The notes beneath the pieces are model-generated. The model worked only from the letters and a program-made list of their open reading frames with translations. It did no database searches and had not been told where the DNA came from. A stretch of DNA of 64,000 nucleotides from Octopus vulgaris (lineage: Eukaryota): assembly GCA_951406725.2 (NCBI GenBank), contig OX597821.1:101184001-101248000 (forward strand), written 5' to 3'. Made by a program: the position numbers and the translations under genes. Positions 29,649 through 59,852 of the stretch are shown piece after piece. Every line of letters starts with the position of its first letter. Position 1 is the first letter of the stretch.

Positions 29649-30355
29649 TCATAAAACTGTCACTTTTTCTTTATTATCAGAACTGTCTTCATCATCCAGG
29701 ATATCAGATATAAATAAAGGAGCTGATAATGCTGTAATATTTGCCTGGTTAATTATTCCTGAAACAATGCTAAACTGTCGATTAACTTGTTTTTGTCTTC
29801 GTTCTTGTAAATAGTTAATGATGCAAAGCCGCAAAGATTTGATTAGGGATAATACTATGTAAATACCAGGAGTTGTAAAAATAACAAGAAAAGGTACAGT
29901 TGATGACAAATCCCCAGGTCTGCTTGAGAGAGAAAAACGTAAAGCTGCTACTGTTATCAGATTGTTAAAGCTTGAAGTTTCGAGAGAGAGAGCTTCTAAA
30001 ATTGGCCCATCTTGGCGGAATATCAAGCCTAGAAAAAATCCGAGAACCCAACCCGTTACTGGTAATAGAGTACATCCTAATATAATATAAATGTCCAATA
30101 TGTTCCATACATACATATTAATGTAGACACCAAGGGTGATAAATAAAATACACATAAGTAATAGCAATGGTTTTAATAACCAGTTCAATATTGCTTCTGC
30201 CACATTTGGTTTTAAATACTTTGTTAATATCCCTCCTGTATAGGCAACGAAGACTGACACCAACCACACTTCAATGTGGTAAATAGGAATGGTTTTGTGT
30301 GCGTCTAAATGTAAAAAGTACTGTCCTAGTACAAATATCCAAAGAGGAGCTGTCC
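29649..30355 (-). CDS. SLC10-like terminal coding exon 3 (GTAPLWIFVLGQYF...KEKVTVL*)
   Basis: Acceptor ttctgtttcttacag at 30356; phase 1 completes Gly195; in frame with ORF 29649..30269. Several hydrophobic helices and the ET..xN motif; TGA at 29651-29649. Confidence 0.93.
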
Positions 30356-33300
30356 CTGTAAGAAACAGAAGTTATGTTAGTATTGTTTATTGTTATAGAA
30401 TGAAAACTGTAAGCTTTTATTTTATTTTTTAGTAAATCATGGTTTTAATTCAATAATAACTATAAGTCAATTATTTCTAAAGCAAGATTATAAATGAAAA
30501 GTTTGCAAAAATATTTCTTTATAAAATTATAATTTTTGAAGAAAAAAAACTATTATTAGTAAAGTTAACAATGAAACTTGAAGATTAAAAAATGCAAACA
30601 TATATTAATCTATTAAAAAATATTACATTTTTATAACTTCTTACACCTGTAATCAACCATGTTCACATCCTTGTCTGTCTCATATTGACTTCACCAAAAT
30701 GCTGTACATAGGTGGCAGAACAGCACTCTAACAGAAATACCACTACAGTCTCTTTGCCAAAATGGATATTCCTGAATCAATTAACAACTAAGTTCACTGG
30801 TATTTTGTTATTTACCTCTCATTATTTAGTCAGTAGAGGATAAGTGTTGTAATATTTGCAGGTCATCTCAACCTTGATTGATGTGATTAATGTTCAGCTT
30901 GAACATTTAAAGGTTGACATGATCAAGAAAAATATGCGTGGCAAGGTTATTCTAGATGAATGCACTTGTATGAGAAATGATTAGGAAAAGTATTTAGTGT
31001 TGGTTCTGGAAGGTGAGACAATAACATGAGGAGCTATGTCAGATTGGCTTGGGTGAAGGGATAACTAATTTATCAGAGCTGGAGGTTTGTAGTAGTGGTA
31101 CAAGAGTCAGAGAGGAAAAAGGTATCTGTAAGCCAATGTTTGTAGCATCTTTATTAATGAATCTTTGCTAATTAATTGAATGGATTTTGATGGGGACATA
31201 TTATCTATCGTGGCACTCTGTTGGTTACTATTACAAGGGTTCCAGTTAATCCAATCAACAGAACAGCCTGCTCATGAAATTAACGTGCAAGTGGCTGAGC
31301 ACTCCACAGACATGTGTACCCTTAATGTAGTTCACAGGGAGATTCAGCGTGACACAGAGTGTGACAAGGCCCTTTGAAATACAGGTACAACAGAAACAGG
31401 AAGAAAGAGTGAGAGAAAGTTGTGGTGAAAGAATACAGTAGAATTCACCCCCACCCTCACCGGAGCTTCGTGGAGCTTTAGGTGTTTTTGCTCAATAAAC
31501 ACTCACAACGCCCAGTCTGGGAATCGAAACCACAATCCTATGACTGCAAGTCTGCTGTCCTAACCACTGAGTCATTGTGCCTCCACATGTTGTCTATAAT
31601 GTGTATATGTGCATTGGTATGGAGTAAAAGCAGTACACAGTTTTATGCATTAAAGCACAGTACTTTGTCATTCATACTTCTGCACTGCAAAGAATCAACA
31701 AGTAATAAAAACCAAACATTTTTGTTGCCTTGAAGAGGAAGCTTAGATTTTAGAATACTGTTGCATTATACATATAAGGTCGGCATCAGAGATTGTAAAG
31801 TATAACTTTTGTAACAATTTTGGAAACTTCAGTTATGTGATAGAAACTTTGTCTTTCATATTTGCAACAGTTGTCTTGGTGTTGGTGTGGAAATATAGAT
31901 TGAAATGTCGCTATCAAAGTATGTTTTGAGGTTTCTCTTTTCAGTGCTGCTCCAGATATGATGTAGAAGATTAAGAAGGAATGAAGAGTAGTAGTCATCT
32001 GCATGTGTATTGTTAGAAGTAAGAGTGAGTAGGTTAATGAGTGTGGGAGACATAACCAATCTTAGGTTACAGCAATTAGCATACATGTGGTTTTTAGTTA
32101 TATATAAAAATGTTGTGTGAATGAGTCTTTAGTAAATTTCTTTTCTAAACCATCTTAGTTTGTACCTATGGATTACAGAATCTGTTTTCAACAAACCAGT
32201 TATATAGTAAGTTTTCTGGTTAGAATCTCAGTAAAGAAAATAAAATTAAAAGTTGATAAATTTTTATGGTGCTTTTGGGATAAATTTCTCACACCTGTTT
32301 TAGGTGTGAGAATTTATCCCATTATAATTATAAATAAATATATACACAAAAATTTTGTATAAAAGCAATTATAATATATTGTAATCTATAGCTTTTTTTA
32401 AAATTCATATGAATATTGTTTATGCACTCATAATAAGCTAAATTTCATTTTTGAAATTTGAAATGTAAGAAGTTATTGAATCAACTCTAATTTTCTGATA
32501 AGCAGTATAGCCTTAAATATCAATATTGATAAAGCATGTATTCCTTTTAAACTAGTTCAGAATATTTGAACTACAAGAGAAACTTTTTGTTCTTGATGGT
32601 TTTAAATTACTATATTCATATATAATACATACTCATGTATTATGTGCACCAAAATTATGAACAATGAAATCCCAGAAAAACATACCCTATCTATAAGATG
32701 CACTGACTCTTTAAAGTATTATAATTTATGGGGGAAAAAATTATCTGCTTTATTATAACTACTGTTTAAAATATATTGGGAAGTTGACAAATTCAAAACA
32801 AAATAATATAATTTTGAAGGTGACCTTTGAACTTTATCAGTGTAATAGACCATAAAAGTATGCCTACCATAAAGTCAACATTGTGGAAATCACATGACGA
32901 TGTTTCTGTTATATTTGATTTTGATGATATACATAAACAAGAGAAAACTCAATTTTCTATGTGTTGTGACAAAAGAACAAACATTTAAGTATGGATTTCT
33001 CAAAGCCCTCTAATTTTTTTACTATGATTTTTTTTATATAAAATGTTTGTTGGATTCTTCTGCTTTGAACATCAGACATTCAAGATCTGACAATTTTGTT
33101 TTCAACTATGCAATGTATTTCGTTTAGCATATAAAGCAAAAATTATTTAATAGTATAAAAAGAGATATTTTTATATACATTGTATATATTTTTAATGATT
33201 TCTATTATAGCAGGTTATTGAAACACAATATTCCAAGTATATGTTCTTGTAGCAGTAATTATACTCAGGCTGATATGTAGCAGTGTATAGACAAACATAA

Positions 33301-36300
33301 TACATTTCATCCTTTAATTGCTTCTGTTTTAGTTTTACATTTTACTTCTGAATCAATTGTGGAAAGACCCATGATCAATACAATTTTTGATGTGGGAATA
33401 CTTACGAAATATAAAGAACATTTAATGTATTATCACTGTCATAAAATAATGAAACATCATTATGATGATTTAAAATTTTCATTGCACATTACTTAGCTTG
33501 AACAATATAATTTTCTTTCCAACTACATCATCCAGAATAAGGCTATGTATTAACTAGAAAGATGGATAACATTTAGTTCTCATGAATAATGTGCTCCTTT
33601 AATATTTAATTTTTAAAAAGTATGGACAAAATGTATTATAAACTTATATATGATAGTGTATTAGAATTTATACCATATAAAAGTAGCATTGCATTAAAGT
33701 TAAATAGAATTGTAAATAATTTTAAGAGTTAATAGCGAATTAGTATCCTCACCATCATCATCTTCAATCACTTTTCTTTTTTGTTTGAAAAACTGCTCAT
33801 AATTCTCATCAAACCAGAAAGCTACATTTTTCACTGCCATTTACCTGTCAGCATACACATACCATATTGTTTAGTGGCAGTGTCCATTTCTTTTTGTCTT
33901 GTGCATTAATCTCCTTAATTTCCTCCACTTCCTAGTGCTTCTTTATTACTCTACCATTTGAAAATTGGGTTTTATATACATAATAATTTTCACTTGCTTT
34001 TAAATTATGATATTCTATTTCATTCTCATCATATGAATATCATTTTCATCATATGAAATATGTGAATGTCAGTTATATTTTATGTTACTATGTTTTATGT
34101 TATATTCTTAGTCACTATAAATCTACATGAATAGATGTGTCTCTGTTGTTTCATCAATTTCTTCATAAATTCTGTTTTTTATTAATTCTTTCTGTCTCAA
34201 TATTTATTGAAATTGTGATTCATCAAAGTGAAACATTCACAGTCAAGTAAGCTATCTACCTGCTTATAGAGGCTGTGCAGGATCAGTTTGATATTAAATG
34301 CTCATTACATGTCCCCTCAATCAAAAATAGGGTCTATTTGCATTGGAAAGCCTGACTAAAGTGAATGGACTCTACTCGTGAGACAAATTTTGATTCCTGT
34401 TATTGTCACAGGAAACTATTCTTTGCAGAATTGACCAAAATTTGCTACAAGGTGACAAATTAGCTTGATGTTATTGTTGTTATTTAGCCTCACACCATCC
34501 TTGTTAAGCAAATTTATGATCAAAAGCTTTCCAATAAAGATCATCCTGTCCTTTTTCAAGATGGTGAGTGAAATTTGAGGAGGATTTTGCTGCTATTTCT
34601 GTTATGTTGAGCAACTGCATAAAAGTTCTTTGATTGTCTCAGACAGTGCGTAAGTCTCATAATTGATCGTTTGATGGATTTTCTTTTATTTATATTTTTC
34701 TGGGTTTTTTTTAGAACTGTATACCTAACATCTGATTAAATGATATAACTTGATTTTATACTTGCCTTAGATAAGTAATGATTATATTTCGAGATGATTA
34801 TGAACCTTACAAATAGGAATTTATTAAAAAAATATATTGCTATAATCCTCTTGCATGTATCGAGCAAAACAATTATCACCTTAAAAGATATTAAGTAGAA
34901 TATAATTGAAATTATGCTTATCAGTATGTTTTTGTTGTTGTTGGAGGAGGAAATGTGATCCAGTACATTTGTGACAATAATTTAATTGAACGTTTAATGA
35001 TAATCCATCAACTCATTATATCAGATAGTAAAATTTTTTTATTATCTAATTCTCTCTCCATGCTTCTGTTATTTAATATATCAATGCCAGATCAATGAAA
35101 GGTTAGGTTTCTTTTTTTTTTAACACAGAAAAGTAGTCTACTAAATGACTTAGCAGTTACATGGATGATAGTTAAGTTAATTTTAACATTTTTAATAAAA
35201 TGGGCATCAAAGGTCTAAGTCTAATTAGAAATATTCATTCACTAAGGAAAAGACAACATTGGCTCAATAACTAATACCATTTTGGCACATACAAAAGCAA
35301 CTACAGATGTATTTCATTTTTATTAAACCTCCTTAGTAATGTATAGACTTCACCACACTTGCTGAAGTAATGGTAAGAGAATTGCTTGGTTAATATGACA
35401 TATTCTATATATGTGTGAAAAATTATCATGTTTTCCATCTGTGATGTGGTGTAACATCTATAGTTAACTAAATTACAGTGAGGCATAAAATTTGTGAATT
35501 ATAAAAATATGAAATGGAGAAAATACCATTAACCAGTAGTTATGTTGTGAGCACCTCACTCTGTTTATTCTATTTAACCCTTTCGTTACTGTATTTATTA
35601 TGAGATGCTTTCTGTTTCTTTCAATTACTTTAAACATTACAAAGAATTTAGTAAAATAACTTAGTTATCATTTAGCTACTGTTAGGAACATAAATTGTGA
35701 CTAAGGTTTGGTGGAAGATTTTAATTCAAAACTTATGAAAACAAGACATTTGTACTCAGATCCAGAGCCAGTTTCAGCCAGGTTGGTAACGAATGGGTTA
35801 AATTATTGTAAACTTGTTTTATTTGCACAGTATGGCACACATGATGGAGTTTCTTTTGATGGGATATAAGAAAAATTTTGCAAGTGTTTCATATTTATAT
35901 AAAATGAATATTGTGTGTATGTTGAATTTCATCCAATAACAAATTTGTTTTAACTGCTCTTCATCTGTATGTGTCCAATGACTTCATTTGAAATAAATTA
36001 TTACAACTTGTAGACCTTTTCTGCCTTTATTTGTATTAACTATTTAGTTTTAGATAGGATACCTTACATTGATAGGTCTTAATAAGCAGGGGTTTAGAAA
36101 ATTGCAATCTCCAGAATGTTCCATCTGCTGCTAATTCAGATGACTTCATATGAGAAAATGCAAGGGCAGAAAACATTAATATTCTATTCTCATCAAAACA
36201 TGTCAATGTTTCTTTTTTTTAGCAATCCACAGCTGTTTGTGTACCCCATGATATAAACTTAGAGTAATTTTAATGTAAAAATCAAAGAATATGCCTTTCA

Positions 36301-39297
36301 CTGTTGCCTTCCCATTTTTGTGGCTTAACAGCTGTAAATTTATTTTCTTTCATTTGGTTGCTATATAAACTAATATATGGTTTCATTTGGTTTCAACATT
36401 ATTATTAGTAATATCAGTATTATCATCATCATCTTCGTCAGTTTTCAATTACTTAACAGATGTAAGAAATGTGTCTAAGTATGCATGTGCTTATACACAT
36501 GTTCATATTGAATGAGATAAAGAGAGAAATTCCAAGCATTCTTTACTTTTTTATGTTGTCATATTTAAAATCAAAATGGAAGCTATTGATCTTTTTAAAA
36601 CCTTTACTTTGTATAACTTTTGGAAATTATACTATCTGTACTTTTTTTTTTTTTTAATATATGCATTGACTTTTATTGCTTTATTTGTTCCAATTATACA
36701 TAGGAAAAAATTAGCTGAATTTTTCTGTTACATAGAGGAATAGGATAAAATAAAATGAATTTTTTTTAATAGATTCCCTTCAAGTACATGTTTTAACAAG
36801 GTTTAGCTACTTCATTAAATATTTCAGTTACCATTATAGAAATGTTTAAATTTCCTCCCATTTTTCATTGAGTTTCATTTTCCAACCATTTTTCTTTTCC
36901 CTATTTTAGAATAAAAATCAATTTTTGTCAATATTTCCTTAGATTTTAAAGCCCACTGATGTCTCTACACCAAAGAAAACAATTATTTTTTTCAAAGTTA
37001 TTAAAATAATAAGGTTGTTATTGGTTAAAATGCTATAGTTAAATTTCAATGGAGAGAATATATGTATATTGAAAAGATCAGCCCTTCTTTCTAGTAAAAG
37101 ATCAGCAAAATTGTCATATAAGTGTTAATAAGATAATATTGAGTTTAACAGTTTAAAGTCTTGCAGTTGTAAGACTCCTAAATTATCAATTTTTAAGTGT
37201 CTTATTTTGTCACAACATGTTTGCTCATAAATATTTTCCTCAAAACTATTATCTGATTTTAATGTAGTTTGTTTCTGTAATGAGAACACAAATAGAAGAG
37301 AGCTGAACTTGACAGTTTATAGCAGCCAGTTTAATATCTTCAGCTCCAATCCTGCTAGAATTGTCTTTCATGAAACTGGGATCCATAGATAAAAAACATC
37401 AGTAATATACTTTGGTTCATCTCTGTTAACTGTTACATTTTAAAACATGAGTATTTATGCAAGAATAGTAATATTTAATTCCAATAATTTTTCTATATCA
37501 TATAATTGTTTTACATATCAGTAGTAGAATAATTTTTCATTAAAAAAATTAATCTACTGACTCAAAGCGATTCACCTTAGACACACATGGACATATACAC
37601 ATGTACAAATGTATGCATTTTCTACATTTGTGTGTATTCAATAGTTCACCACAGGCTCCTTCAAGAGACCTCTTTATAGAATTTTTCATACAAATTTATC
37701 AAAAATCGTTTCTATAGATCACTTCATCTTCAAATTTTTATAGATTCTTACACTTGGTAAGAATTTCTGGTTCCATGTATAAGTGTATAACTGAGTCTTT
37801 AGTATGATCCTAATGGATCCAATTGATGTGTTATATATAAAAAAAAAAAATTCAAAAGACCAATCACCTGAGGATTGAGAATAAGAACTTCTGAGTAATG
37901 ACTCGCACAGACTCAGCTCTGAAAAACTTTTACTCTGCTCTTTTTAACAGTACTGAGTATTGTCTGTCACTTAATTGCTTTCACACCAATGTGATATCAC
38001 CAGTCACTAAAACAAGATATGCACACAGAAAATTTTATTTCCATACTCAACAAAATTCTTATGTTAGATTTGAACATATGCCATGTTTTGTTTTTTCTTT
38101 TTTCTTTGGAGAAGTAGTTATGATCTAACTGTCTGAAGTATGTTATGGCAATCATAAGTTCAGCAATTTAATCAAATATCTATTAGATCTTTATAAAACA
38201 CTAGTGAGTCAAAGAAATAAATTATTTTTAACAAATACTGACTAATATGTAAATGAAGAGCCAACATTACACAATTATTGGCAATTTATTCTTATATATT
38301 AAAACATCTGTGTTTACATTAAAAGAATCTTATTCTTTTGCACTTAATTTGATATCTTTCATATTGAATTTTATTTATCCCATTATATTTCCAGTTAAAC
38401 TTCATTCATTTTATCAATTTCTGGCAATAACAATTGATCCATCTTTCTATAAGATAAACGCAACACATTTATCCTTAGACTGTAGACCTGGTCCAAATGC
38501 TTACAAAAGTATGAACTCTGTTAAAGACATCCAAGGGTGTCGGTGGTGTTAAACTGATAACAAACTAGGTTTGCTTTTCCTACTTAATACATTTTCTTCA
38601 TTTCTATAAATTTTTGTTCATTTAGGGAAAAGTTTTTTATGATAACATTTAAATTCAAAGCTCTTTGTAATTTTCTGTTTGAAACAAATGTGTGAATTGG
38701 GGTGTCATGCTCAATATATCATCCATCATTTAATGTCCATTTTCCATGCTGACATGAGTTAAACAGTTTGATGGGTTAAAAGACTGCATCATATTTCATT
38801 ATCTACTTTAGCATGCTTTCTATGGCTAGATACCCTTTATAATGGCAACCACCTTACAACATATACTGAGTGCTTTTATTTTTAATGCCACCAACATAGT
38901 GAGGACACCATGCAGCTTGCAAGATTACAAACCCAAAGAGATGTGGTTTTATACTAGGAAATGTGGGATTAAAGTATAAGGGAAGAGGCCAATGGGGAAC
39001 AGGTTTCTTGCTGTAAAGGAGCTACTTGGCTACTCAGAATTTAGAAGTGGAGATGATTGGGTGGAGCTGGGAAAAAATAAAAATAGTGGTGATGAGGTAA
39101 TTGGATGGATCCTCAAGGTATAAGGTGGTTAGAAGTGAATGGGGGAAAAGGAACCAGGAGTGTGGATGGGTAGAAGGAATGTATGGGAGAATCAGAACTG
39201 GGGAATGGATGTGGGGTGGGGCTTTATAAATTATAGTTTCCAATGAGAATAAATATAATTTATTCATTCTGGGAAATCAAATGTAAAATCTTACATT

Positions 39298-39344
<47 letters not shown>

Positions 39345-42300
39345 TTGTTTAATTTTTTGGTGAAATTTATATTTAGTTTATATTGGAGTTTTATATTATG
39401 ATAAGCTATATGTATTTGTGTTTAGTAATACTTACCCAACATTGCTACCATACTGATGACATTCATACTTATGCTGAGGTTCATCTCCCCTTCTGTGACA
39501 GACGTGATACTTAGTCCCAAACCACCTCCTGGTACACAAGTTGTGGAAAGTAAACCAAATCGTATGCTGTCATCAACAGGTAATGACATTGCTATTCCAA
39601 ATGCAATCTGAAAGAAAAATAGAACAGTGTTCTTAAACTGTTAATTACTTGACTAGCATGCATATGGCTTATCACTATCATCACCATTTTTATGATCATT
39701 TTTTTCATCATTGCTTGGACTAGATGGATCTTCTCAAACAGAGCACCTCACTACTTACCACATCTCCTATGAGTTTCAGCTTCCTGAGATCAGTTTTCAC
39801 TACTTTATCACCATATCTTCCTCGGTCTTCCTTCCATTTAGATTGCTTGGCACTTCTTTACTTAATTTCATCCTTCATAAGTATTGTATGTCTGTTCTAG
39901 CTCAGTCTTCTCTCTAGCATACTACATCTAATTCCTTAGCTCATTTGTTTTTCATTGTTCATGTACACCAATGTTACACATCCAGAGCATGTATCTATGG
40001 TACACCATGTGGATTTTTACTCCTTTTCTCCATATTGAACATGGCCATTTTACAAATGACAGTTCTCTTATTTCTTGTTTATTAAAATTTTAATCTTTGC
40101 TAAGTTTACTTTGATGCCTCTTCATTCTAGATTTTACTTCCTCATTTAGAATTTCTTTTCTAAATCTTCAGCAGCTATAACTAGATCATTGCTTAGGAAC
40201 TCTTACAAATGGCTTGTCTTAAACTCTATTGTTATTTCCTAGAGAACTACAATAAACAGGAAAGGTTTGAGAACCAAACCCTTGTGGATATCTAAAAGTA
40301 TGCTAAATTCCTTGCTGAATCTATTATTGATTCATACCTTGTTGGCAGTATTTCTATATATGTCTTGTATGGCTCTCACTAGCATACACATAATTTCCTT
40401 ACTATTCACCAGACTACATCATAATATATCATTTATTTGTGTAACACACACACGTACACACAACATCACTTTTCCATTTAAGTAGAAAAAAAGTGTCTTG
40501 TTTTTAAGCATATTTTCATTAATTTGATATTTGTTTCTAAAATATGTTTTAGCTATATTACAAAATATTGAATTTACCTAATATATAGATTTAGATATTG
40601 AATATAATATCAATTTAGATAAAACATATCTTTTCAACTGAGAAAATAGATATAATTGATGAAATGAACTGCTTTTCAATAGCTGTAGGTTTAAGGTGAT
40701 GGACTATTGATCTCTCACTTGTAAGTTCAAAAGAATTGTTTGCTACATAACTTTACAACCTCTTTGCAATCTTCATTTAATTTACTCGCTTTCCTTAAAT
40801 GGTGAGTTTCTACATACAATGTTTAATTATCATTGTTTTATTTTATTTTATTTTTGTTTACTTTTTTCTAGTCATTTGGAAGTTGTTTTTTGAAATCCAA
40901 ATGGCTTCACAAATAGCATTATTATCAGCTGAAGAAATACAGTAGATGTATCAATGATAGAAAGATGATGATAGGGTTTAGAGATAGCTATTTACTATAT
41001 AAAAGCATGTGAATGCACATTTCTTTGTCATTTCAGTTTTCCAGTTGAACTAAAACCCAGCAAATCTCCCCTAAATTAAACTTTGAAGGTTCAACATTAA
41101 GTGATTTTTATAAATTTATAGACGTTTTTTGTTCTGAATGAGAATTTTATGCTAGCAATACTTAGCAACACTTACATCACTGAAATCTTGCCAGATTTGT
41201 GGCTTTAACATATTTTAATTAACTCTAAGGTCTTTTAATTTAGATTCTGTAATATTGGAATATGGAGACATTGCAAATATAATGCATCGACCACCTAACA
41301 ATAATGCTAATATACTGACATAATATGTGAAACAATATTGATATATAACTCTATACATACATCCACAAATCAGCTGCTTTTTACCCAGTGTATTATTCCA
41401 ACTGATATATTATCTTATTGTGTAGCTAGCATTTATCTTGATAATTGATTTGGAAACCATTTATAAACAATTTTATAATGTTGACTATAAGCCATTAACC
41501 TTTAGATTTGTATTTTGCTGTTGTTGATTGATTACTCTATTCATCTGTGAATATATCTATAATACATTTAACGGTTTCATTAAGCATCTAGAACAGCTGC
41601 TAAATTTCATTTGGCTTTAGTGTGATTTTCAATCCTTTATATTAGTATTTAAATATATTTGATTAACTCCAGTGTAATTAAAGGTTAAAATTAATTATGA
41701 CAAGAATTAAACTTGTGTGGGGTTAAAATTCAATAACACATCACTCTCATACGTTACAGTATTGGATATCAGAATTATGTTTTAGATTCCAAGCACTGTT
41801 ACGAATCTAAAATAGCTGGTATTAGCTAGAAAGCTTGGAGAAAATTTCTTAATTCTAAGATTGGAGAATAGAAGATTATCTGTTGGAGTTGCATCCAGTT
41901 GCAGATCCTTAATTATATGGCATTTAGTCTCTGCTTGAAGACCCATCCCATTAATATTCTTTGACAAGGGGTGAGGAATAACAAAACACTGTAGATTGGT
42001 GACCTTGTACATTCACTAACCAGTAGACTGATTTATAACTTTGCTTGTATGTATCTTGCTAAGGTTCCAAACATTAGTTTGTGCTATTGTATTGAACCTT
42101 TCTGTAGAATAATAGTAGGAGGGGGAAAAAAAAGAAAAAATAGTTTAAAAAATGGGGAGTAATGTGACACAAAATAAAAAACAGAAACGTGAAATGAATA
42201 AAGATAGGAAAAGTGATCAGTTGAAAGGTGGGAAAAGGAAAAGCATGAATAGGTGTGATAATCTGTAAATATAGGAGTTAGGAGCGCAAATCTATCAATG

Positions 42301-48300: not shown

Positions 48301-51300
48301 TCCTGAGCCAAAAAATTAACTAACTAACTCTTCCTTTATTAGTTTTGTTTTAGTTTGTTTCATATCTTTCTTCATTTTATCACATACTAATTGTTTAGAT
48401 TGGGATATATTTTGTCTTTTCATAATTTACAAGCTTTATTAAATTCCTTTTGAATAAAAGAATAATTTTCTTCAGTTTCTTTACACAGATGTTATATGCA
48501 CCTTTATAATTACTTTTTTTTTTCTTTTTCCAATATTTATACACTTATAGTTTTTAATCTTTCTTTTTTTTTTCCTAGAAAATGAAGGGTAGTTATTGAA
48601 ATATTTTTTTAACAAAATTGTTGATATTTTTAACAAAATATTCAAGTATATTTGTTTTAGTCTCTTCATTGGCTTTGAGAACTGCTTACATATTAGAGCT
48701 ATGCCAAGAAGAAAATAGAAACTGTTTATACTTATGAGCCTGGGAAAGAGCCAGTGGAGAAGAGGTAGTTGTCATCTACCTTTTTTATTATCCAGTGTAT
48801 TAACATGAGTACATTTTACCAGGCGCCAATAAGCATATTTAGGCTTACATCCATATAAAGCACAAAAAATTGAAATTTCTATATATGCCAACAGCCTAAA
48901 TTAAAATATCTATTTTCTTAAGGAGAGCATAATGAGATGTTTATAACAGTCAAAACCCTTCTACACCAACAGGGCTATTGAAATGCTAAACAATGACATC
49001 TAAACTAATAGGAGAAGGCTTGTAAGGATTTAAAAGAGGCAAACAGATCACTATTTTAAGATGGTTTCCAACTTTTCAAATACCTTGTCCAATACCTTGG
49101 CAAAAGAAAGAAGAATTATATGGATGCAAATTCTATTTTGTCCTCGCCTTAACCCATTTGTTACCGTATTTATTTTGAGATACTTTGTGTTTCTTTTAAT
49201 TAATTTTATATATAACAAAGAATTTAGTAAAATAACTTAGTTATCATTAAGCTAGTGTTAGGAACATAAATTGTGATTAAGGTTTGGTGGAAGATTTTAA
49301 TTCACAACTTTGAAAACAAGATCTTTGTATTACAGAGCCAGGGGCGGTTTCAGCCGGGTTGGTAACGAAAAGGTTAAAGAAAGGATAGAATCAAAAAATT
49401 TTAATATTTAAGAATTTCAGTATTTTGATAGGTGGGTCTTGGTATCTGTCAGTCTAAGAACTGCTGACCCAGACAACTTATTTGGAAGGCACAAATATCT
49501 GCTGCATTATCTGAGAATTTTATCCTTTCATTTGCATGAGTGATCCTAATTTATTGAAACTTGTTCTGTGTAGCTCTGCCCTGTAAATTACAAGAATAGT
49601 ACGGTCAATAATTGCTCAAAGGAAGGTAAAAATATTATCCCTGAAGTGGACTGAAATGTAGTGTATGAATTTGATATCAAATTAAGACTTTTCTGCTCTT
49701 GTGAACATTAAATTTCAACTACCATCAATCTTTCTGATTATATGTATAGTAAGTTTTAGTTTCACTTATTTTGTTATATTCCAATTAATCATATTTCATA
49801 TGTGAAAAATACGATATAGAAGCAGAATCTTTAGCTAAAGTATAGAACTAGAATTTGTTTTATTCAGTATTAACCTGATATATATTTTGACATAATTTTA
49901 CTGTATGAAATATCTTTTTTACTTTTATTTCGTAACCATTTGAATAAAATATGTATCAGCAGATGCCCTTGTTTTCTCCAATCTGTGAAAAGAGAAGCCT
50001 TGTTAATTTAATAAACCCTATTATTCAAAACCATTTTCCCCAAATTATCTTCACCCTGGCTTAAGGAGTCATTTCATATTTATGAAATGCTGCATAGAGA
50101 TTTGTTAGATAAATCAATGTTGCAGGTATTAGATTACTGGTTAAAAGAATACTAGCTGTTTTTAATTACTGATAAACCAAATAGCTATATACTTTGTTTA
50201 TAAATAAGCAAACATCAAGGAATTAATTCTTTACTTTTACTTGAAATGTTCTCTCTAATTAAATAGATTCATGGGGAAAATAGATTTTGTGTCACTAATG
50301 TTCACTCATTTAAGAATTATTGTAAAACATATATGATGGTGAGGTTTTATATTCCTGAACTAGGCATTGCTTTCATATGATCAATTCTTTACATAAACAT
50401 TATTGAGACTAGACAACAATTGCATATTTTACCTACCTTAAAAATAATGTACTGAATATGATTTATTATTATAATTTCAAAATTGAACATCCCTATAACT
50501 TCATCATCATAATTTAACATCAGTTTTCCATGCTGGCATGGGTTAGATGGTTTACCTGGAGATGATAAGCCAGAGAGCTGCACCGGGCTCCATAAATTAT
50601 AGCCCATGTGTTCATCATAATATCCATGATTTCATGCTGCATGGGATTGATTTCTGTGCTGTACATCATATCATCGCTCATCTCAATGCTACATCATCGG
50701 TCTGTGAGGCTGAGTATCCTAATAACTGATCGCTCCTTTTTTGTCCTATACAATTTTCTTCTGAATTCCTTTTAGCTATTTCTCTCTCTCTCTCACATAC
50801 ACACACATGTTTTCACCCAACAATCATTATCTATTTGTATCACATGTCCACCCAATACAGTTGACTTTTACAATACATACATTAGACAATGTCTTTAATG
50901 CCTAGCTGCTCTCTTGGTGCACTTGTGCTTTGCATTTCATGCACTATAGCATTACATATCCAATGGGTCATACTTGTATTATTTCTCTTCTACCTTCATA
51001 GACCTTCTACTTACAATGTCCATTTTAAGGGTTCAACTAAAAAGAAAAAAAATGATAAGTATTATGATAACTATAGCTAACAGATACATTTATGTCCTTG
51101 TGTTACTAGACTGTAGAACATAAAATGCTTTTCTAAGCAGGCAAACCAACTCTGGGGAAGTTAAGTGATACATAGCTCTTCAATACATTTTTCTGTTTCC
51201 TTGTCTGTTTTCCACATCTCTCTCACTATCTTTCTATTTGTTTATTTCTTTATCAGCTGGTCTTAATGTGCCTGTCTGTTTTATACACACGCACATGGAA

Positions 51301-54300
51301 AAAGACATATTTATTTGCTCTTAATATCATTCTAGCCTAAGCCAAATCATGTATGAAACCTTTTTCAATTATTATTTGCCATCAGATCACTAAAATTAAA
51401 GCAATGAAACCAATACTCCAACAATTAACTAGTGTTGAATCAAATTATGTTTAGACTATACAGTCAGATAATATATTATTAGCCCAAGAATGATCGCATA
51501 TTATGTTTAAGTGAACAACAAGAATTAATAAATGAGAACAAAGGATCCGGATTTGAAACTTAATAATTTCTTGAGTAATTGACTTTTAAATGTCTTTGAG
51601 AAACAAAAATTAATATAAATAGCAATAATAATAATAAAATAAGCAATCAGGTGTTCAAGGCAGTAAATACTGCTGGATTTACAAATGTATTAAAATGTAC
51701 AGGCAGTAGGTACTGCAATAGTTATCTAGTTTTTATTTCTTCTTTTTTGTTTTATTTGAGTAAAATAGAAAAAAAAACACACACACAAGGCTTAAAGCAT
51801 AATATAGTTACTGCAATGTCATTGTGAATGAACATTTTGAGACTAGAGACCAACCTGCCTAGAAATTGCTCTACCAAAACTATTTTATTGTCCTAAATTC
51901 ACAATTTGACACCTAAATCTTTAAAATATTGATTTTCATCCACATGTTCATCATCACCATAATATTGACAAAATATTCAAAATGTTATTTGTATTAAATG
52001 TAAGAAATCATTTTGTTTCTAATATTGGCCTATTCATAATGTATCTGGAAATATGTGATTAAATTTGGAAACCTTTAAATGTATATCTAATTGATTCTCT
52101 GGTTCTCATATCAAAGCAATTTTGATATAGCTAAGTAGAGCTGAAGTGTTTTGTAAACCTTTCCTCTTTAAAGCTTGATAGTGGCAGTGTTAAAAATAGC
52201 TTACTTGCAATATGTGCACTGTAAGAAAAATCCCAGCAATTATTTTGGTATATTTTATCTAATGATGTTATCCATATTATTGGTTTATTCTTTTTTGTAT
52301 GCTTAAGGATTTTCTACACCTTGATCTGCATCTTAATTTACGTTTCACTTGTGTGTTTATAACAATAGATATACTTCTGAGATCAAAGAAAAGGTCAAAT
52401 GTGACTCCATAATAGATTACAGAAAGAACTGAAGAGACATGTTATACAAACAAGCATCATGTTTGCTTCTCACTGTTCAAGTGATGTTTGTGATAAAAGG
52501 ATTCTCTGAGTATTATCATTGGTTAAGTCTTGATTACAATGTGTTAAGAAGTTCTTATGCGCATTCCTTGTGTAATTCAATGGATATAGTATATAACACA
52601 AACAGGAAAGTTGTAATATAAATATTACAACTTTTAAAATCCTGTTAATCTAAAATGTTTCAGCTTCTTAAAGGATTCATTTTTGAGCATATTAATAAAA
52701 TATCTTTAAGAAACATCATCTCTTAATGCTTTTTGTTTGGCAATATAGCAGCTGAGATAATTCTCATCATCATCCACATCACAACCATCACCACTGCTGC
52801 TTCTGCCACCACCATATATTAAACATAAATGCTCTTAGCAGAAATTTGTTGCCTGAGAAAACAAAGATTTTTTACTAGTTCTATATGGTATCCTCAACTG
52901 AGATAAAGCTAATTAAAGATCTATGTATGTTTGCATGTTCATTAGTTTGCTTTTGTTCTTTTAAAGAAATTTGTTGTAAATTTGTTTCTTATTAGCTACA
53001 GATAAGTCAACATGTAAGAAATGTTGAAACTTTGTGTTGCCTATGATAACAGCAATTCATTCACTCCAGTTTCTCAAAGAACCTACATCAACAATTTTGT
53101 GTTGTCCTTGTTTTAATGTCATGACGACTACTGCTAAGATATATTTGTGATAAATCCCAATAACTTTCTGTTTTCTCAAGCATGTTTAAGAGACTGTTTT
53201 CACATTAAGGACCTTTTGTTTTGTTAGGGACAAACTCTTAAACAGGTTTTGAGGAATATGAACTTGCAAAAGAGACAGCCACAGTACTGCATCTACTTAT
53301 TCATTGTAATTGTATATGATTTTATTAAAACCAAAATGAACTTTACAAACCGTTACTCAGTGCTTCACATGAGCGTTCATCAAACAGCAGTGATTACTCT
53401 CCTTCAGTATTTGAGTACTATTTTCTCTACCTTGTGTAACACCTATGTACTTATTTGTGTGTGTGTGTTTAAAACAACTTCAATGAAGTCATTTGACCTG
53501 ATAGATATAGTAGTCAAATGACCCTCATATCACACTCTACAGTCTTAAAAATGGAAAGACATTAGCTGCTATAATTCCTATAGAAAAAGATAGGATACTA
53601 AAAGTAGGAAAGCCTACTTAGATCATAGCTTTTACTCAATCAGGGCTGACTTATAACTAAATCTTGACAAGAACTTAATCCTGAAAGAACTTAGCCCTAA
53701 TAAGATGTAAAGTGACAATGGCATACCACCAAACTACTTCTAAGCTTTCACTGAAATGTGATATTGGAGTTCTCAATGAATAACTTGTCTTGCTCAAACT
53801 TACATTAGTTCCCAGTTTAATACACTACCTTTAAAATATTGTTTAACTTGGCTGCTCCATTAAGATACCTTACAAGTAACCTAATTATTTTGTGGTGTTA
53901 ATCAAGATATTCCTAATCAAGTTAGCAAGATTATTAATTATATGCAAGATAAAATTAGATTTACCAAGAGGATTAAAGTTTCAGTGGTCATAATTATTTT
54001 TGTATCAGATATGAAATCTAAACACTGTTCTGTAATATATCAAAATGGAATATATATTTTCTTTTCATTTGTGGATCTGATCAATTAGAGTTTTCTAGCT
54101 CACATGGCCATGATTATTTTCATATAATATTGTCATTAACAGAAAATGGTTTCAATCAATAAGCAATCAGAACTAAATTGGTGTCATAATTAGTAGAAAA
54201 TATGAAACTTGTTTTCTCAAACTCTTTTTCTTCAAAGAGGTTCAAATTTCATGGTTAGCTCAAAACATAGGACTGCTACAAACATTAAACATCATCTGAA

Positions 54301-57300
54301 ATATTCATCAATTGAAAAATGAAGTTATACAATTACAATATGATAATATTACAGTATTTTTTTCTTTTTGTTATATCCCTTTTGTGTGGTTATATTATAT
54401 TTGCGTGTGTGTGTGTGTGTGTAGTAAAATGTACAATTATTGATAAAAAATTAAATATGTTAAATAGAATATGATAATATTAGCATAATATTTTGTAATA
54501 TTTGAGTTAAATGTATTGGTTACACATCAGTGAGTGCATCCCTAGCTGTTATGTGTGTGTGTGTGTATAGATGTTGATATATAGTAATTATGCCTCATAT
54601 CCATTAAATTATAAAGGTTCTGAGTTAATTCTAAATAATTGTAAAATTGTAAAAAAGTTCTAATACAAGCGATTACACATGAGAACATTTGAAGATCAGC
54701 ATTCTGTAATATTACATTTTTATGTTTAGCTATTAGTCATTGCACTTTTAACAGCAGCACATCAATGAAACATGAGGTAATTAAAGCAAATCATCATTGA
54801 AAATAATTAAATGGAGGACTAAACAAAATTTGTTAGGTGATTACATTGACTACATGTTCTCTATCTAAAACAAAGCTTAGAACAAGAATAATCTTTTAGT
54901 AAATAGTCATTTAAATATTTTAAAATTTGATCACTGCTTACAGCTCTATGGGTGTAGTAAGCATTAAAATGATTATTTCTAAATCAGATTAAGACATGAC
55001 AGGAATATATCTGAATGCTTCCAGTGTATTTCATTTTAATTCTTAACACTAAGGAAGAGTGATGTGTGGTTGAGAAGCTTTGCTTTCCAACCATATGGTC
55101 TTGGTTCAGTTCCACTGCATGGTACCTTGGACAAGTGTCTTCTACCGTAGCCTCAGGCCAACCGAAGCCTTGCGAGTGGATTCAGTAGATAGAAACTGAA
55201 AGAAGCTTGTCGTGAATGTGTGTATTTGTGTGTACTCTTGTCGTGACATCATGTGATGATTGTAAACAAACATACCATCATACAAGCAACATTGTTTGTA
55301 TCCAATCTTCCATGAAAAACATGTCTGACCATGAGGAAATATTACCTTGCTTAGAAACAGGTGAGGTTGGCAACATGAAGAGCATCCAGCTATAGAAAAT
55401 CTGCCTAAACAAATTCCATCTGACCTATGCAAGCATGGAAAAGAGGATGTTAAATGATGATGACAATGGTGATAATTGAGGAAGAATGTATTCTTTTGTT
55501 TTCAAATGCAAATAAGCACTTTCTGAAAGTGCTTATTTGTATTTGAAAAAAGTGTTATGTGGTTCTTAAATTTGGTTATCTTGTAAGCACTTTTCTTGCT
55601 CAATTGTTGATAAGGTATTTGTGTTTTTAGCTTGATAATTTGACACTATTTTTCAACTGATCTGATCTACGTTTTTTATCATAATTAACATCTATCACTT
55701 TTTTTCATATTCAAACATTTTATAATTATTTTCTTTATATTGTTAAAAACTATATTAATAATGTCACTTTCTAAAAATGGATATTTTAAGTTTCCCTCTT
55801 TAAAACCATTATTTACTGGTATGCTTAAGGTATTTGTAATGTTATGGGTATTTAGAATATCAGTAACACATTTTCAGTTTAATAGAAATTAGCATTTAAG
55901 TCAGCTGACATATTTTCTCTGATTGAGATCAATTAGTTCAAATAGATTATCTGTTTGGTTACTTAAACTTTTACAGATTAACAATGATCCTAATTATCTT
56001 GAATTGAAAATGTTGTTACACTTACAAAAGACTGATATAAACTGGAAGCACTAGGTCAACCATGACAGCTTACAGAAATAATTGTAAACTGTTATAAAAC
56101 CAGACAACATTGAGGTTGAAATTATGGGCCACAGATTGGAATGACATGGAGAGCTTTTATAAGGAACTCAAAGAAGTTTGGGGACCACAGAAGAAGTGTC
56201 ATGTTGTCTTGAATTGGTTAATAAAAGAGAAATGGCTCCCAGACACTAGGAGTGTATTGAGATGAGCAAAAGCTGGGTTCACCATGTAACAAAGATCCTG
56301 TAGCCAAATCCAACAGTGCTGTCAGAGTACCTGGTGGTGATGGAATCTGAAAACATGATTGATTTAGCCATATCAACTGTCAATACAAGCTAACCATAAA
56401 TGCATAGCAAGAAGACTGAAGACCATAAGAATGATATTGTCCACAATTTTTGAAGAAAGGAAACAGAACCAACTGCAGAAATTATATAGGAGTCTCACTT
56501 CTATCAATAGCAAGTAGAAGAGATCCTTCACAACAGCCTTATTATCCATGTAATCCAAGAAATAATACCAGTATGGTTTCCCAGAAAACTGTAGGAGAGT
56601 AGATTTAGTCTTCAGTCTCCAACAGCTCTAGGAGATATAGTTTTCAGTCTCCAACTGCTCTAGGACAAACTGGTCCCTGTATGTGGAATTTGTTGATACA
56701 ACAAAGCATTTTATATTATTGGTAGGTCTGCTCTCTGGTAGCCACTTTGGAAATAGGTTTCTTTTGAGTAATTCACATTCATAATGAAAGCTTTGCACAC
56801 TGGAATGATGACCAGAGTCAGCATACAGAAGACTTAAGATACATTTGCTGTAACAAATTGTATTAAACTGAAATATGTATTGGTTCCTAGACTCTCAACC
56901 TATCTGACAGTAATGCTGGAGGATGCCTCATCAATCTTGAAGATGCAGTTAATATACAGTACCACTAAAGTGCAGACTTTTTCAATGTTGCCCATTTTAG
57001 AGAAAAAAAAGCAACCCCAATCCTTGTAAGAGAACTACTGTATGCAGATGACAGTGCACTACTCATGCATATGCTACAGCACATAGAGATCGTGGATGCA
57101 TTCTCCACTGCATAAAAAAACCTACAAAAAACAGAAGTGCTATTCCAGTCAACACACAACAGAAGTATGAGATGATGGCATTAATCTTTAAAAGTGTACA
57201 AGACTTTTTGTATTTTGGCGGTACATTACTGAAAGACAGTCATATCAATATTGAGCTACAAAAGAAGATAGTAAAGACATTTGGTCTAATGTATCTATGG

Positions 57301-59852
57301 TTATGGAACAATCATCATATTTTTATTGAAATCAAATGCAAGGGCTGCAGACAATCTTCCTGTTTGCTCTTTTGTATGGTACCAAAACTTGGACATTGTA
57401 CAAGAGTCAGGTGAAGGAACTTTGTCTTCATCATGAAGCATTTGTGTTCAGTCATGAAAGTCTCTTAGAGTGACATGTTTACCAACAGTCAGATGCTAGA
57501 ACAGATACTAGAAAGAACAGAATTGCTGAGTATGGATGATTCCCAGCTGGAATATACAACATTGGCAGGGTATGTTACCCAAATATTATCTGAAAACTGA
57601 CCAAGCAAGTTTCATACTCACAACTACCTGAAAGTTAAAGAAAACATGATCGGTCTCACCTATACTATTAGAATAGCATAGAATACTATATAGCAATCTT
57701 TTAATGCTATAGACATCTATATCCTAACAAAAGTATAGAGGGTGGCTATTAGATAACTATGTGGATAGATATGGACACTACTGATAGATAGCATGCCTAT
57801 ATGATTATATAAATGCATATATATGGTTTATATATATATATATACCTTGTGTGTGTGTGTGACTTAAGAAACCTCAGCTTGTAATAAAATATAAACATTC
57901 TACTTTACACTCTAAATATTTTTCCTTCATTTGTAAACAAACATTTTTCAGTCTTCACACAGTCACACACACACGTGTGTGTGCACACACTCATAGACAC
58001 TCATACACACATGCATGCACACACACTGAAGTTGCTTGACATTGCAAGATGTAAACCTAAGATGTGAGTGTTATGATTATTAAGTGTTCAGAAAATGGGT
58101 TGTTATTAATATTATTAATCAAAATGGATTTTATTATAATCATTTAAGTTAGAGGTTTTTCAGTGTAACTTAAATGACACTTTCTGATAGTCTTACCTAA
58201 AAATATTCCAATGTACTTTGTTAAATGACAAAGCACAGTTGATGAAGAATATATTTATAATTTAATACCTATTATTAGTTTAATTATGGAAACTGAGGCT
58301 TCTTAAATTTAGGAGACTTTTTTTTTTTCATTCTGAAATACTTGATAGAAAATTACTTACAAATTTTGAGAAAATGCCAAGTAACCTAACTTTATAAAAC
58401 TTTTCAAATTACATATCATTTAAAGTGTTTATTACAGTAACAATGTGTTGTTATAATTGTTAGTGCCAAAATTATTATTATTATTTATTATTATTATTAC
58501 TATAAGGTAGCAAGCTAGCAGAAAAATTAGCATACTGGGCAAAATGCTTAACGGCATTTCATCCATTTTTACATTCTGTGTTCAAATTCCGCTGAGGTCG
58601 ACTTTATCTTTCATCCTTTTGAGGTCGATAAAATAAGTACCAGTTGTACACTGGGATTGATGTAATCAGCTAGCCCCCTCCCACCAAATTTCAGGCTTGT
58701 GCCTATCATAGCAAGAATTGTTGTTTTTGTTGTTATTATTATTATAGTAACAGTGATTATATATATATATATATGTATGTGTGTGTATATATATAGATAG
58801 ATAGATATAGATATATATATGTATGTATGTATATATGATATAACATTAAGTTCTAAAAATTGTAAATAGTACACCCTAAAATAAAATAGCCTGTTGAGAT
58901 GTATGGATAAGGGAGAGGTCATATAATTTCAAATATTCATTTGAATTTTTGTTTAATAACAAAGATAATTTAATTTTATAAAAAAAAATAGGTCTTGTTT
59001 AATTATGTAGTTCCAAACAAACGAACTGATATTGGGTTATATCACAAAAATGTAAACATAATATCAGTATTTGGATGTTATCAAAATACTATATATATAT
59101 ATATATAATACACACACACACAGATAGATAGATAGATTTATAAATCTATTCTGATACACTTTTGTTTTTGATTAGAACTATTCCTTCCATAGAATTATTT
59201 CACCTTAATGCTGTAGTGTCAGGTTTCTTTGTTTTACCTCATTGTAAATTTGTTTCTCTGAGATATGTTGACATTTGAATGGAATATAATACTGAATAAT
59301 AATAGACATGTGCATAATTTTTATTTTATTTTTTATTTTATTTTGTGAGTTAACAGTAATGAAAGAGAGAGTGGAAGGGAGGTAGCATAAAGGAGTGAAT
59401 ATGATTTGAATAATGTTAGAAGTAATAAGTCTCTCACTTACCAAAGGGTTTAACAAAAACTGTACAATAAATCCAATTACTAGAGGCACAGGATACTTTA
59501 ACTGATGTTTAAGACTAGCCACATCAGTCATGGCTCCAAGTCCAAAGGTAATAATAATGCCAACAGCAGCAATAGAATAATCAAAGACAACATCAGATAC
59601 TCGTGACTTCCTGATGACAGATGCCAGGTGAGGAACATTTTTCTGGGAACCAACAGAAATAGCTTGTACCTGAGATGAGTGGAGCCCAGACGTACTGAAG
59701 ATAGTGGTAGTTGTCATTCTGTCCATGGAAGCTGCTGCTGCAGCAGCTGGTGATAGCACCCCTGCACCACCACTACCTACCTCTAAAAGTAACTCCACAG
59801 AGGTGAGGTTAATGCTCTCTGCCCGAGGGACATAAGTTGCTGTCATGTCCAT
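29649..59852 (-). CDS. SLC10-family (bile acid:sodium symporter / ASBT-NTCP-like) membrane protein, 429 aa; join of 59442-59852, 39436-39607, 29649-30355
   Basis: Exons of 411+172+707 = 1290 nt give one open frame with GT-AG introns of phase 0 and phase 1. Family motifs occur in order: TFGLG, KYPVPLVIGFIVQFLLNPL, CVPGGG...GEMNLSISM...LGTAPLW, LLPVTGWVLG, LETSSFN. Family is clear; orthology to a specific SLC10A member cannot be set by eye. Confidence 0.93.
31195..31586 (-). mobile_element. SINE family C, full length, in intron 2
   Basis: Minus-strand tRNA-like head gtggaggcacaatgactcagtggttagg...ggtttcgattccc (A/B boxes), GC-rich body; related fragment at 8330-8450. Confidence 0.85.
35578..35797. 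mobile_element. piggyBac-like MITE family 1 (220 bp)
   Basis: TTAA target duplication (35574-35577, 35798-35801); ~13-bp TIRs CCCTTTCGTTACT / GGTAACGAATGGG; colinear with 49153-49373. Confidence 0.92.
38718..38900 (-). mobile_element. RTE-tailed retroposon 3' fragment
   Basis: Reverse complement of the shared tail (catttaatgtccattttccatgctgacatg) plus a degenerate ggttggcattaggaagggcatcc block. Confidence 0.7.
39436..39607 (-). CDS. SLC10-like coding exon 2 (IAFGIAMSLPVDDSIRFGLLSTTCVPGGGLGLSITSVTEGEMNLSISMNVISMVAML+G)
   Basis: Not in the ORF track. Acceptor tttttctttcag at 39608, donor G|GTAAGT at 39435, 172 nt open in phase 0. Carries the SLC10 PGG / GDMNLS signature. Confidence 0.93.
39670..40400 (-). 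mobile_element. Decayed RTE/RTE-X-like LINE immediately upstream of exon 2
   Basis: Minus-strand remnants IHKGLVLKPFLFIVVL (GVHQGSVLSPLLF-like), NDLVIAAE (ADDLV-like), RGIKVNLAK, MLWMCNIGVH, GRPR and a (GAT)-like tail near 39670-39710. Confidence 0.65.
44245..44755 (+). mobile_element. Cluster of three head-to-tail SINE family B copies or fragments
   Basis: Cores at ~44330 (gaggttgattatactttcatc) and ~44465 (gaggttgattttgcctttcatcc), plus a degraded third copy from ~44585, separated by (ATT)n. Confidence 0.8.
44860..45062 (+). mobile_element. RTE-tailed retroposon 3' part
   Basis: gtggttggcattaggaagggcatcc...acccatgccagtatggaacatggatgttaaatga(TGA)n, homologous to 4035-4193. Confidence 0.85.
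47440..48190 (+). mobile_element. Decayed RTE (BovB-like) LINE ORF2 fragment
   Basis: LFNIARIKIKT; ELDVVHKFLHFGSTVTDNLALEAEITKCIGKA from 47664; ASALLYNGE; PKHLFYGEL; RCKDACKHDM. All resemble RTE ORF2 motifs; disrupted. Confidence 0.82.
49153..49373. mobile_element. piggyBac-like MITE family 1 (221 bp)
   Basis: TTAA at 49149-49152 and 49374-49377; TIRs CCCATTTGTTACC / GGTAACGAAAAGG; colinear with 35578-35797. Confidence 0.92.
50501..50600 (-). mobile_element. RTE-tailed retroposon 3' fragment
   Basis: (TCA)n...ttttccatgctggcatgggtt...gctgcaccgggctcca is the reverse complement of 4100-4193. Confidence 0.78.
55053..55470 (+). mobile_element. Chimeric SINE: family A head and body with an RTE-type (GAT)n tail
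   Basis: 55053-55215 matches the A head; the 3' half differs and ends gcatccagctatagaaa...atgcaagcatggaaaagaggatgttaaatgatgatg. Second copy at ~63510-63840. Confidence 0.85.
55499..55549. repeat. Near-perfect palindrome, 25-bp arms, 1-nt centre
   Basis: ttttcaaatgcaaataagcactttc-t-gaaagtgcttatttgtatttgaaaa; one mismatch (55508/55540). Confidence 0.95.
55990..57670 (+). mobile_element. Decayed RTE (BovB-like) LINE reverse transcriptase
   Basis: VRELLYADDSALL at 57026-57064 (YADD catalytic motif), plus YVEFVD, KTEVLFQ, DFLYFGGTL, LWNNHHI, LLYGTKTWTLY; multiple stops and frameshifts. Confidence 0.88.
58504..58745 (+). mobile_element. SINE family B, full length
   Basis: Head, B-box gtgttcaaattcc, core gaggtcgactttatctttcatcc...gtcgataaaataagtaccag and tail; flanked by (TTA)n. 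Confidence 0.9.
59442..59852 (-). CDS. SLC10-like coding exon 1 (MDMTATYVPRAES...IVQFLLNPL, 137 codons)
   Basis: First in-frame ATG at 59852 (aagcATGG, strong Kozak) with an in-frame TAG upstream at 59873-59871. The ORF track starts at a TTG. Donor TTG|GTAAGT at 59441. The ORF-track tail beyond NPL is intron read-through. Confidence 0.9.

Follow-up and report, generated by a model that had tools for sequence, protein, structure and literature searches.

In the bile acid transporter NTCP (SLC10A1), one sodium site (Na1) is made up of S105, N106, S119, T123 and E257 and the other (Na2) of Q68, E257, T258, C260 and Q261 (PMC10298714, PMC9399531), with Goutam et al. giving Q68 and Q261 as the only side chains at Na2 (PMC9242856). 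We have analysed an SLC10 gene of Octopus vulgaris that lies on the minus strand of a 64,000-nucleotide stretch of contig OX597821.1 (assembly GCA_951406725.2, positions 101,184,001 to 101,248,000), the whole of which we call the window and number from its first letter. Its product resembles human NTCP, ASBT (SLC10A2) and SOAT (SLC10A6) and bacterial ASBT(NM)/ASBT(YF) in belonging to PF01758, in its predicted nine-helix fold and in keeping Q68, S119, E257, T258, N262 (NTCP numbers) and the hinges, but it differs from them in four replaced site residues, an identity of about 23% and a conserved tail of its own that ends in T-x-L. By descent and predicted fold the gene belongs to an old spiralian branch of SLC10, and by its site residues the clade is outside the sodium-coupled class. 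We tentatively favour, at a little under an even chance, a function as a sodium-uncoupled, passive elevator carrier whose ion site has turned into a structural 'support site', by analogy with the plant auxin carrier PIN8 and from the residues that the clade has kept.

Canonical invertebrate SLC10 paralogues belong to the same family and have a similar N-terminal extension, and the genomes of Haliotis, Mytilus, Lingula, Owenia and Tubulanus hold both canonical and degenerate kinds. The canonical paralogues differ in that they keep the sodium ligands (exactly so in 171 of 195) and fall on the tree's opposite side. CsSBAT of Clonorchis sinensis keeps the ligands S289, N290, S303, T307, E441, Q252 and Q445 (PMC9645658), and it is another gene than the one by which flukes are represented in the degenerate clade.

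PIN8, of the BART superfamily, has the same crossover elevator fold (Z 12.4, root-mean-square deviation (rmsd) 5.5 and 269 residues aligned to our model of the Ruditapes orthologue). Where ASBT binds sodium, PIN8 has a water-filled, hydrogen-bonded support site with essential polar residues, and its transport is uniporter-like and independent of Na+, K+ and pH (PMC9477730). It differs in its identity of about 10%, in a topology inverted relative to ASBT and in its family, PF03547, to which the octopus protein has no match. SLC10A4, SLC10A3, SLC10A5, SLC10A7/RCAS and LYCHOS (GPR155) have the SLC10 or a related fold without demonstrated bile-acid transport and have neuronal or signalling roles. 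The likeness to the orphan SLC10 proteins is one of fold; our trees hold no identified vertebrate sequence, and the octopus protein lacks a match to PF13593 (SLC10A7-type). The SLC10A3/A5 (P3/P5) type is marked by a signal peptide and an extracellular N-terminal domain; the Ruditapes model has an N-terminal helix and a beta-sandwich, which are missing in cephalopods.

One member of the clade has already been mapped: Schmidtea mediterranea slc10a-6 was named in a survey of transporters that charted its expression with in situ hybridisation (PMC4500094); it has an expression entry only, with an empty RNA interference (RNAi) cell and a main text silent on slc10. The planarian slc10a-4 of the same survey is also listed as brain-expressed, equals slc10a-6 in its distance from human SLC10 (E 3e-11), and may be another clade member.

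The octopus gene and its sodium-site residues

The gene has three exons separated by GT-AG introns, and its 1290 coding nucleotides give 429 amino acids and a stop. Its features are as follows (TM, transmembrane helix).

59442..59852, minus strand: exon 1, amino acids 1-137, with a short extracellular N-terminus, TM1 and the start of TM2
59462-59460, minus strand: codon of Q131 (NTCP Q68), in exon 1
Amino acids 15-17, in the exon 1 N-terminus, minus strand: N-L-T sequon of the octopus protein
39436..39607, minus strand: exon 2, amino acids 138-195, with the TM3 crossover, TM4 and the Na1 positions; matches PF01758 and is covered by contigs from four runs
39512..39532, minus strand: TM3 crossover P163-G-G-G-L-G168-L169, with S105>G and N106>L
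39517-39515 and 39514-39512, minus strand: codons of G168 and L169, the equivalents of the lost S105 and N106
39461..39475, minus strand: TM4 residues S182 (S119, kept) and N186 (T123, changed)
29649..30355, minus strand: exon 3, amino acids 195-429, with TM5-TM9 and the cytoplasmic tail; phase-1 acceptor
29964..29981, minus strand: TM8 crossover E320-T-S-S-F324-N325, with E257 and N262 kept, G259>S and Q261>F
29969-29967, minus strand: codon of F324, the equivalent of Q261
29709..29777, minus strand: conserved segment of the cytoplasmic tail, amino acids 388-410, from alignments
29652..29672, minus strand: C-terminal K-E-K-V-T-V-L, presumably a class I PDZ-binding-type end

Local alignments to solved NTCP chains, free of gaps over both crossover motifs, place the octopus protein at an offset of +63 both at TM3-4 (chain 7vaf, with residue 17 of exon 2 at chain position 91) and at TM8 (chain 7zyi), so that the constant register proposed in an earlier, sequence-only reading of this DNA stands on the Protein Data Bank chains. 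The residues and coordinates listed there (Q131, G168, L169, S182, N186, E320, T321, F324 and N325) all match ours, and its NTCP ligand lists agree with PMC9242856, PMC10298714 and PMC9399531. The octopus protein has exchanged S105 for G, N106 for L, T123 for N and Q261 for F, and it has kept Q68, S119, E257, T258 and N262, the last a substrate-contacting asparagine of the crossover, present as N325. The claim that both sodium sites are degenerate is stronger for Na1, where three of the five side chains are changed (the octopus protein having G168, L169, S182, N186 and E320), than for Na2, where one of the two listed side chains is changed (F324 in place of Q261, with Q131 kept).

Membership of the family is supported by profile and by predicted structure. 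The octopus protein scores 68.1 bits against PF01758 (SBF), for which the cut-off is 24.3, and all ten clade proteins scanned pass. The predicted model, with a per-residue confidence (pLDDT) mostly of 80-94 in the core, superposes on NTCP entry 9qzq with Z 31.9 and an rmsd of 2.6 over 280 aligned residues, and its TM-score by target is 0.86-0.87 to 9qzq and 7pqg; the model thus has the predicted core/panel fold with the discontinuous TM3/TM8 crossover of NTCP. The best model matches are nanobody-bound and inward-facing entries, and we set the predicted conformation aside as weak evidence. PF03547 gave no match for the octopus protein at E<=0.01, with one fluke member at 18.2 bits, below the cut-off of 25.7. 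Similarly, PF13593 did not match the octopus protein, and the Lingula member scores 30.8 there against 71.1 for PF01758. PF24690 was reported for none of 12 scanned proteins, canonical ones included.

The gene also appears intact. Its spliced product is identical to XP_029639629.1 of Octopus sinensis, annotated as a sodium/bile acid cotransporter, and the O. bimaculoides protein differs at five of 429 positions, none of them at the sodium sites. An in-frame stop lies six codons 5' of M1, and decapod members share the start. The joint of exons 2 and 3 is spliced exactly at the predicted sites in contigs from all four runs, from four studies; these runs are taken as RNA by inference and not by record, and their contigs reach the exon 2-3 joint, with the exon 1-2 joint outside their stretch. 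Codons 168, 169 and 324 have a single letter state in these contigs, and the sole coding variant, at 29913 in three of the four runs, is synonymous. In all 15 related metagenome loci the AG acceptor of the last exon stands at the identical place and phase. A scan of both introns for open, GC-richer candidate exons returned nothing transporter-like. The ratio of nonsynonymous to synonymous divergence (dN/dS), taken from related loci, is 0.008, 0.022 and 0.026 for three exon-3 pairs (L032, L033, L034), a sign of purifying selection; these loci have F at the Q261 position, the pairs are not independent, and pairs with saturated dS were excluded. The judgement that open reading frame and splice sites are sound and that this is no pseudogene is therefore borne out. 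We give practically no credence to an assembly error or to decay, since the same residues occur in O. sinensis, O. bimaculoides, Argonauta and the decapods, the codons are uniform in four runs, the splice joint is exact and dN/dS in relatives is far below 1.

Extent of the clade and the state of its ion sites

Homologue searches found orthologues in bivalves, gastropods, Lingula and Owenia, and a profile search with cluster look-ups added the nemertean Tubulanus, the bryozoan Bugula, Paralvinella, Schmidtea slc10a-6 and six flukes. The clade thus spans cephalopods, bivalves, gastropods, annelids, a brachiopod, a bryozoan, a nemertean, a planarian and flukes, and orthologues across several phyla rule out a peculiarity of octopus. 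A quick tree of 153 rows gathers the degenerate proteins, 33 in number, into a single group. When the site columns and their neighbours were removed, the clade kept a support of 100/100 in IQ-TREE (17 clade and 28 canonical rows, unrooted and with no identified vertebrate sequence among them), which rules out that the grouping is an artefact of those columns; the octopus protein falls in the clade, with the canonical paralogues on the other side. Within the clade the topology matches the species tree: bivalves and gastropods together are the sister group of cephalopods, and flukes that of the planarian. No member beyond Spiralia was seen among the organism-named matches (the best 150 of 6395 profile hits, with eight of ten looked-up single-exon hits nameless), so that the taxonomic range is a lower bound. 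The ESM Atlas gave ordinary SBF clusters only. The gastropod Babylonia areolata has two clade copies (P0019, P0020), the other named species having one each in the searches made. An invertebrate SLC10 subfamily, intact, under selection and with remodelled sodium sites, had been suspected from the octopus gene alone; it is supported by these measures and extends well past cephalopods. We found no paper on a sodium-site-less SLC10 clade in the open literature, and subscription papers or supplements could hold one.

Site states were compared between 36 clade and 195 canonical proteins of at least 330 amino acids with all nine columns filled, leaving out fragments, nine near-duplicates of clade rows and P0014, in which the TM3-4 segment is missing. 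In the clade, position 105 is G in 27, A in eight and S in one; position 106 is H in 21, Y in ten, L in four and F in one; position 123 is always polar (N in 27, S in nine); and position 261 is F in 17, L in 14, S in three and M in two. The canonical proteins have S105 in 194, N106 in 189, T123 in 190, Q261 in 190 and E257 in all 195; all nine reference residues are found in 171, and none jointly lacks S105, N106 and Q261. S-N and Q, which the sequence-only reading had named as the sign of an assembly error, did not turn up in the orthologues, as N106, T123 and Q261 are absent from all 36 and S105 from 35. The losses are thus fixed clade-wide, but the exact letters G, L and F are specific to cephalopods, most of the clade having G-H at 105-106 and, in the place of Q261, one of L, F, M or S.

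Much of the site is nonetheless retained: Q68 in 36 of 36, S119 in 34, E257 in 33, T258 in 24 and N262 in 36, with S at position 259 in 27. The hinge set G43, P58, G64, P73, P100, G101, G102, P135, G173 and G233 is kept, together with N262, in 32-36 of the 36. This conserved polar centre (Q68, S119, N/S123, E257, N262 and often H106) suggests that the site was rebuilt and not simply erased. Cephalopods, Lingula, Owenia and flukes have a non-titratable residue at position 106, and A takes the place of E257 in three schistosomatid proteins (P0112, P0114 and P0199, from Trichobilharzia and Schistosoma; automatic gene models); therefore no ion ligand is universal in the clade. Those three proteins have no charged residue at the ion sites at all, a state without parallel among the canonical proteins as regards E257.

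The clade has also gained conserved residues, which in octopus numbering are W225, W253, L327, W/L351, F354, S/A322, D91 and R334. D91 (59582-59580) is acidic in 81% of the clade and in 2% of canonical proteins, and R334 (29939-29937) is basic in 100% and 34%, respectively; both lie on the predicted outer face and could form an outer-gate salt bridge. Outside the clade, Musca domestica P0151 has R at 68, A at 105 and L at 261, possibly through independent degeneration, and P0266 (Pomacea) and P0150 are likewise aberrant.

The membrane core of the octopus protein is 75% identical to that of decapods, 54-55% to that of clam and abalone and 28-39% to those of other phyla. The octopus and decapod tails are 88% identical, against 75% for the core. 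A T-x-L C-terminus, which we take to be of the class I PDZ-ligand type (S/T-x-hydrophobic), ends 31 of 36 clade proteins, T-V-L in octopus, against two of 195 canonical ones; the Bugula protein and four other clade rows lack it. At the other end, bivalve and gastropod orthologues have a signal peptide and an N-terminal extension, for which an immunoglobulin (Ig)-like fold is predicted in the model of the Ruditapes orthologue (P0008), where an N-terminal helix is followed by a beta-sandwich modelled with confidence at residues 47-190 (Z 8-9.6 for the Ig-like matches). Cephalopods (window 59852-59600) are without the signal peptide and keep little of the Ig-like domain.

Uncoupled carrier, coupled carrier or sensor

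In a sodium-uncoupled carrier of this kind, the small G or A at 105 would make room for the bulky H, Y, F or L at 106, which would fill the Na1 pocket, and the hydrophobic residue at 261 would spoil Na2. Q68, S119, N/S123 and E257, with the gained S259, would then form a hydrogen-bonded support site that shapes the crossover free of ions, and the solute would follow its own gradient or be exchanged. The cargo of such a carrier would likely be an amphipathic organic solute, and the PDZ-type tail likely holds the protein at a chosen membrane.

In NTCP, the S105A/N106A and Q261A mutants are inhibited in taurocholate uptake at normal surface expression, and N262A blocks uptake (PMC8773476, Table 1). 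Because such mutants lose uptake, canonical two-sodium coupling is unlikely in the clade. An ordinary two-sodium symporter of the bile-acid type that tolerates the substitutions would agree with the database names and with the PF01758 score, but those names are automatic and the joint loss of S105, N106 and Q261 is without example among the 195 canonical proteins, so that we regard it as very improbable. Among columns conserved in at least 90% of canonical proteins, the clade has lost four of eight sodium-site columns and one of 25 others (Fisher p=0.008), which points to a loss aimed at the ion ligands, with the hinge glycines and prolines staying. The kept Q68, S119, N/S123, E257, N262 and hinges fit a PIN8-like picture, and the repeated loss of a titratable residue at 106, together with the schistosomatid E257 change, argues against an obligatory ion. 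By analogy, the clade protein most likely works like PIN8.

Several points weigh against an uncoupled carrier. The Fisher comparison was made at two thresholds (at 80%, four of eight sodium-site columns against five of 40 others, p=0.03), and its columns are not independent. In simulations of BASS proteins sodium stabilises the substrate at the crossover (PMC10645422), so that without it transport may cease instead of becoming uncoupled. Bulky conserved residues gained close to the path of the substrate in NTCP (L at 264, W/L at 288 and F at 291) could block the cavity; the greater conservation of the cephalopod tail over the core fits a scaffold role; and Q68, S119 and E257, with the frequencies given above, might yet bind a single ion. 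Hinge residues, moreover, serve folding too, and their retention is no proof of movement.

Another reading is that the carrier is still coupled to an ion at a site that has been rebuilt, using a proton through H106-E257 or one sodium or other cation at S119, N123, E257, S259, Q68 and backbone carbonyls. H106 occurs in bivalves, gastropods, Bugula, Tubulanus and Schmidtea, a breadth that makes it probably ancestral, and the constant polarity of position 123 and the frequent E257 and S259 would suit such a site. Na2 keeps Q68 and probably its backbone ligands: C260 varies among NTCP, ASBT and SOAT and yet is a listed Na2 ligand (PMC10298714), from which we infer backbone coordination that the substitutions would leave unaffected. 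Against this, octopus has L at 106 and others Y or F, A replaces E257 in the three schistosomatid proteins, and a single Q261A change already inhibits uptake by NTCP (PMC8773476). We consider coupling of this kind quite unlikely.

Alternatively, these proteins may be non-transporting sensors of a steroid- or lipid-like ligand, or membrane scaffolds, signalling through the tail and its PDZ end and possibly neuronal, in the manner of LYCHOS/GPR155 or of the orphans SLC10A4 and SLC10A7. The prevalence of T-x-L in the clade, the well-conserved cephalopod tail and the bulky residues near the cavity all agree with it, as does the loss of uptake in the equivalent NTCP mutants (PMC8773476). The survey entry for planarian slc10a-6 reads 'Brain; Epithelia; Mesenchymal cells' (row 86 of supplementary file 1, PMC4500094). 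In oocytes or HEK cells four human SLC10 members show no transport; SLC10A4 is located on synaptic vesicles, and SLC10A7 is a regulator of calcium entry (PMC10298714). The cholesterol sensor LYCHOS has the same fold (Z about 16). However, N262 and the hinge set are kept across several phyla, the extracellular Ig-like domain, which could have served a receptor, is lost in cephalopods, and the Bugula protein and four others do without T-x-L; PDZ ends are, besides, common on true transporters. A sensor or scaffold thus seems rather unlikely, and its fullest version, a Spiralia-wide, single-origin, ion-free steroid or lipid sensor that arose from a sodium-driven bile-acid carrier, is PDZ-anchored in neurons and epithelia and is the sole NTCP-type gene of octopus, unlikely.

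The octopus gene complement and the meaning of the clade

Searches of the octopus genome with seven full-length canonical queries (P0039, P0063, P0084, P0229, P0256, P0176 and P0075) and PF01758 recovered the exons of this gene at 23-45% identity, five of the seven also recovering the 57-residue exon, and found no further credible canonical (S-N...Q) SLC10 locus. Similarly, no cephalopod was seen, counting by eye, among the 78 organism-named proteins of 97 hits to a canonical Haliotis query. A 43-residue query had no match at all in the octopus genome and a PF13593 control search found nothing, which makes sensitivity doubtful, as very small exons may be missed; canonical genes are therefore 'not found', which is not a shown loss. 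Both of the canonical orthogroups of molluscs may be gone from cephalopods, which would leave octopus with this gene only. Among weak genome hits, L003-L008, L014, L024 and L028 proved on reading to be repeats or noise, and L012, L016, L018-L020, L025, L026 and L029 have internal stops.

The window also holds repeats. A 355-nt inverted repeat (618-972 / 994-1348) has arms 98% complementary and 21 nt apart, and is either a long hairpin or an assembly fold-back. A 300-nt direct repeat (62373-62672 / 62902-63201), 99% identical and 529 nt apart, lies upstream of the gene. Within introns, 31040-31735 and 35564-35911 are copies of a very abundant repeat, with a contig depth of thousands to tens of thousands, likely a short interspersed element (SINE)-type element.

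The name 'sodium/bile acid cotransporter' that databases give to clade proteins is probably wrong. Flukes have an unstudied clade member beside the canonical CsSBAT, and the planarian member is tractable, with published primers, expression that includes the brain, and routine RNAi. SLC10 has been treated as strictly sodium-coupled, and four of its seven human members are orphans without a known substrate; the clade bears on the role of such non-transporting SLC10 proteins as well. Finally, a branch that has persisted through mollusc, annelid and flatworm history without four of the sodium ligands would be a natural experiment on an uncoupled SLC10 elevator.

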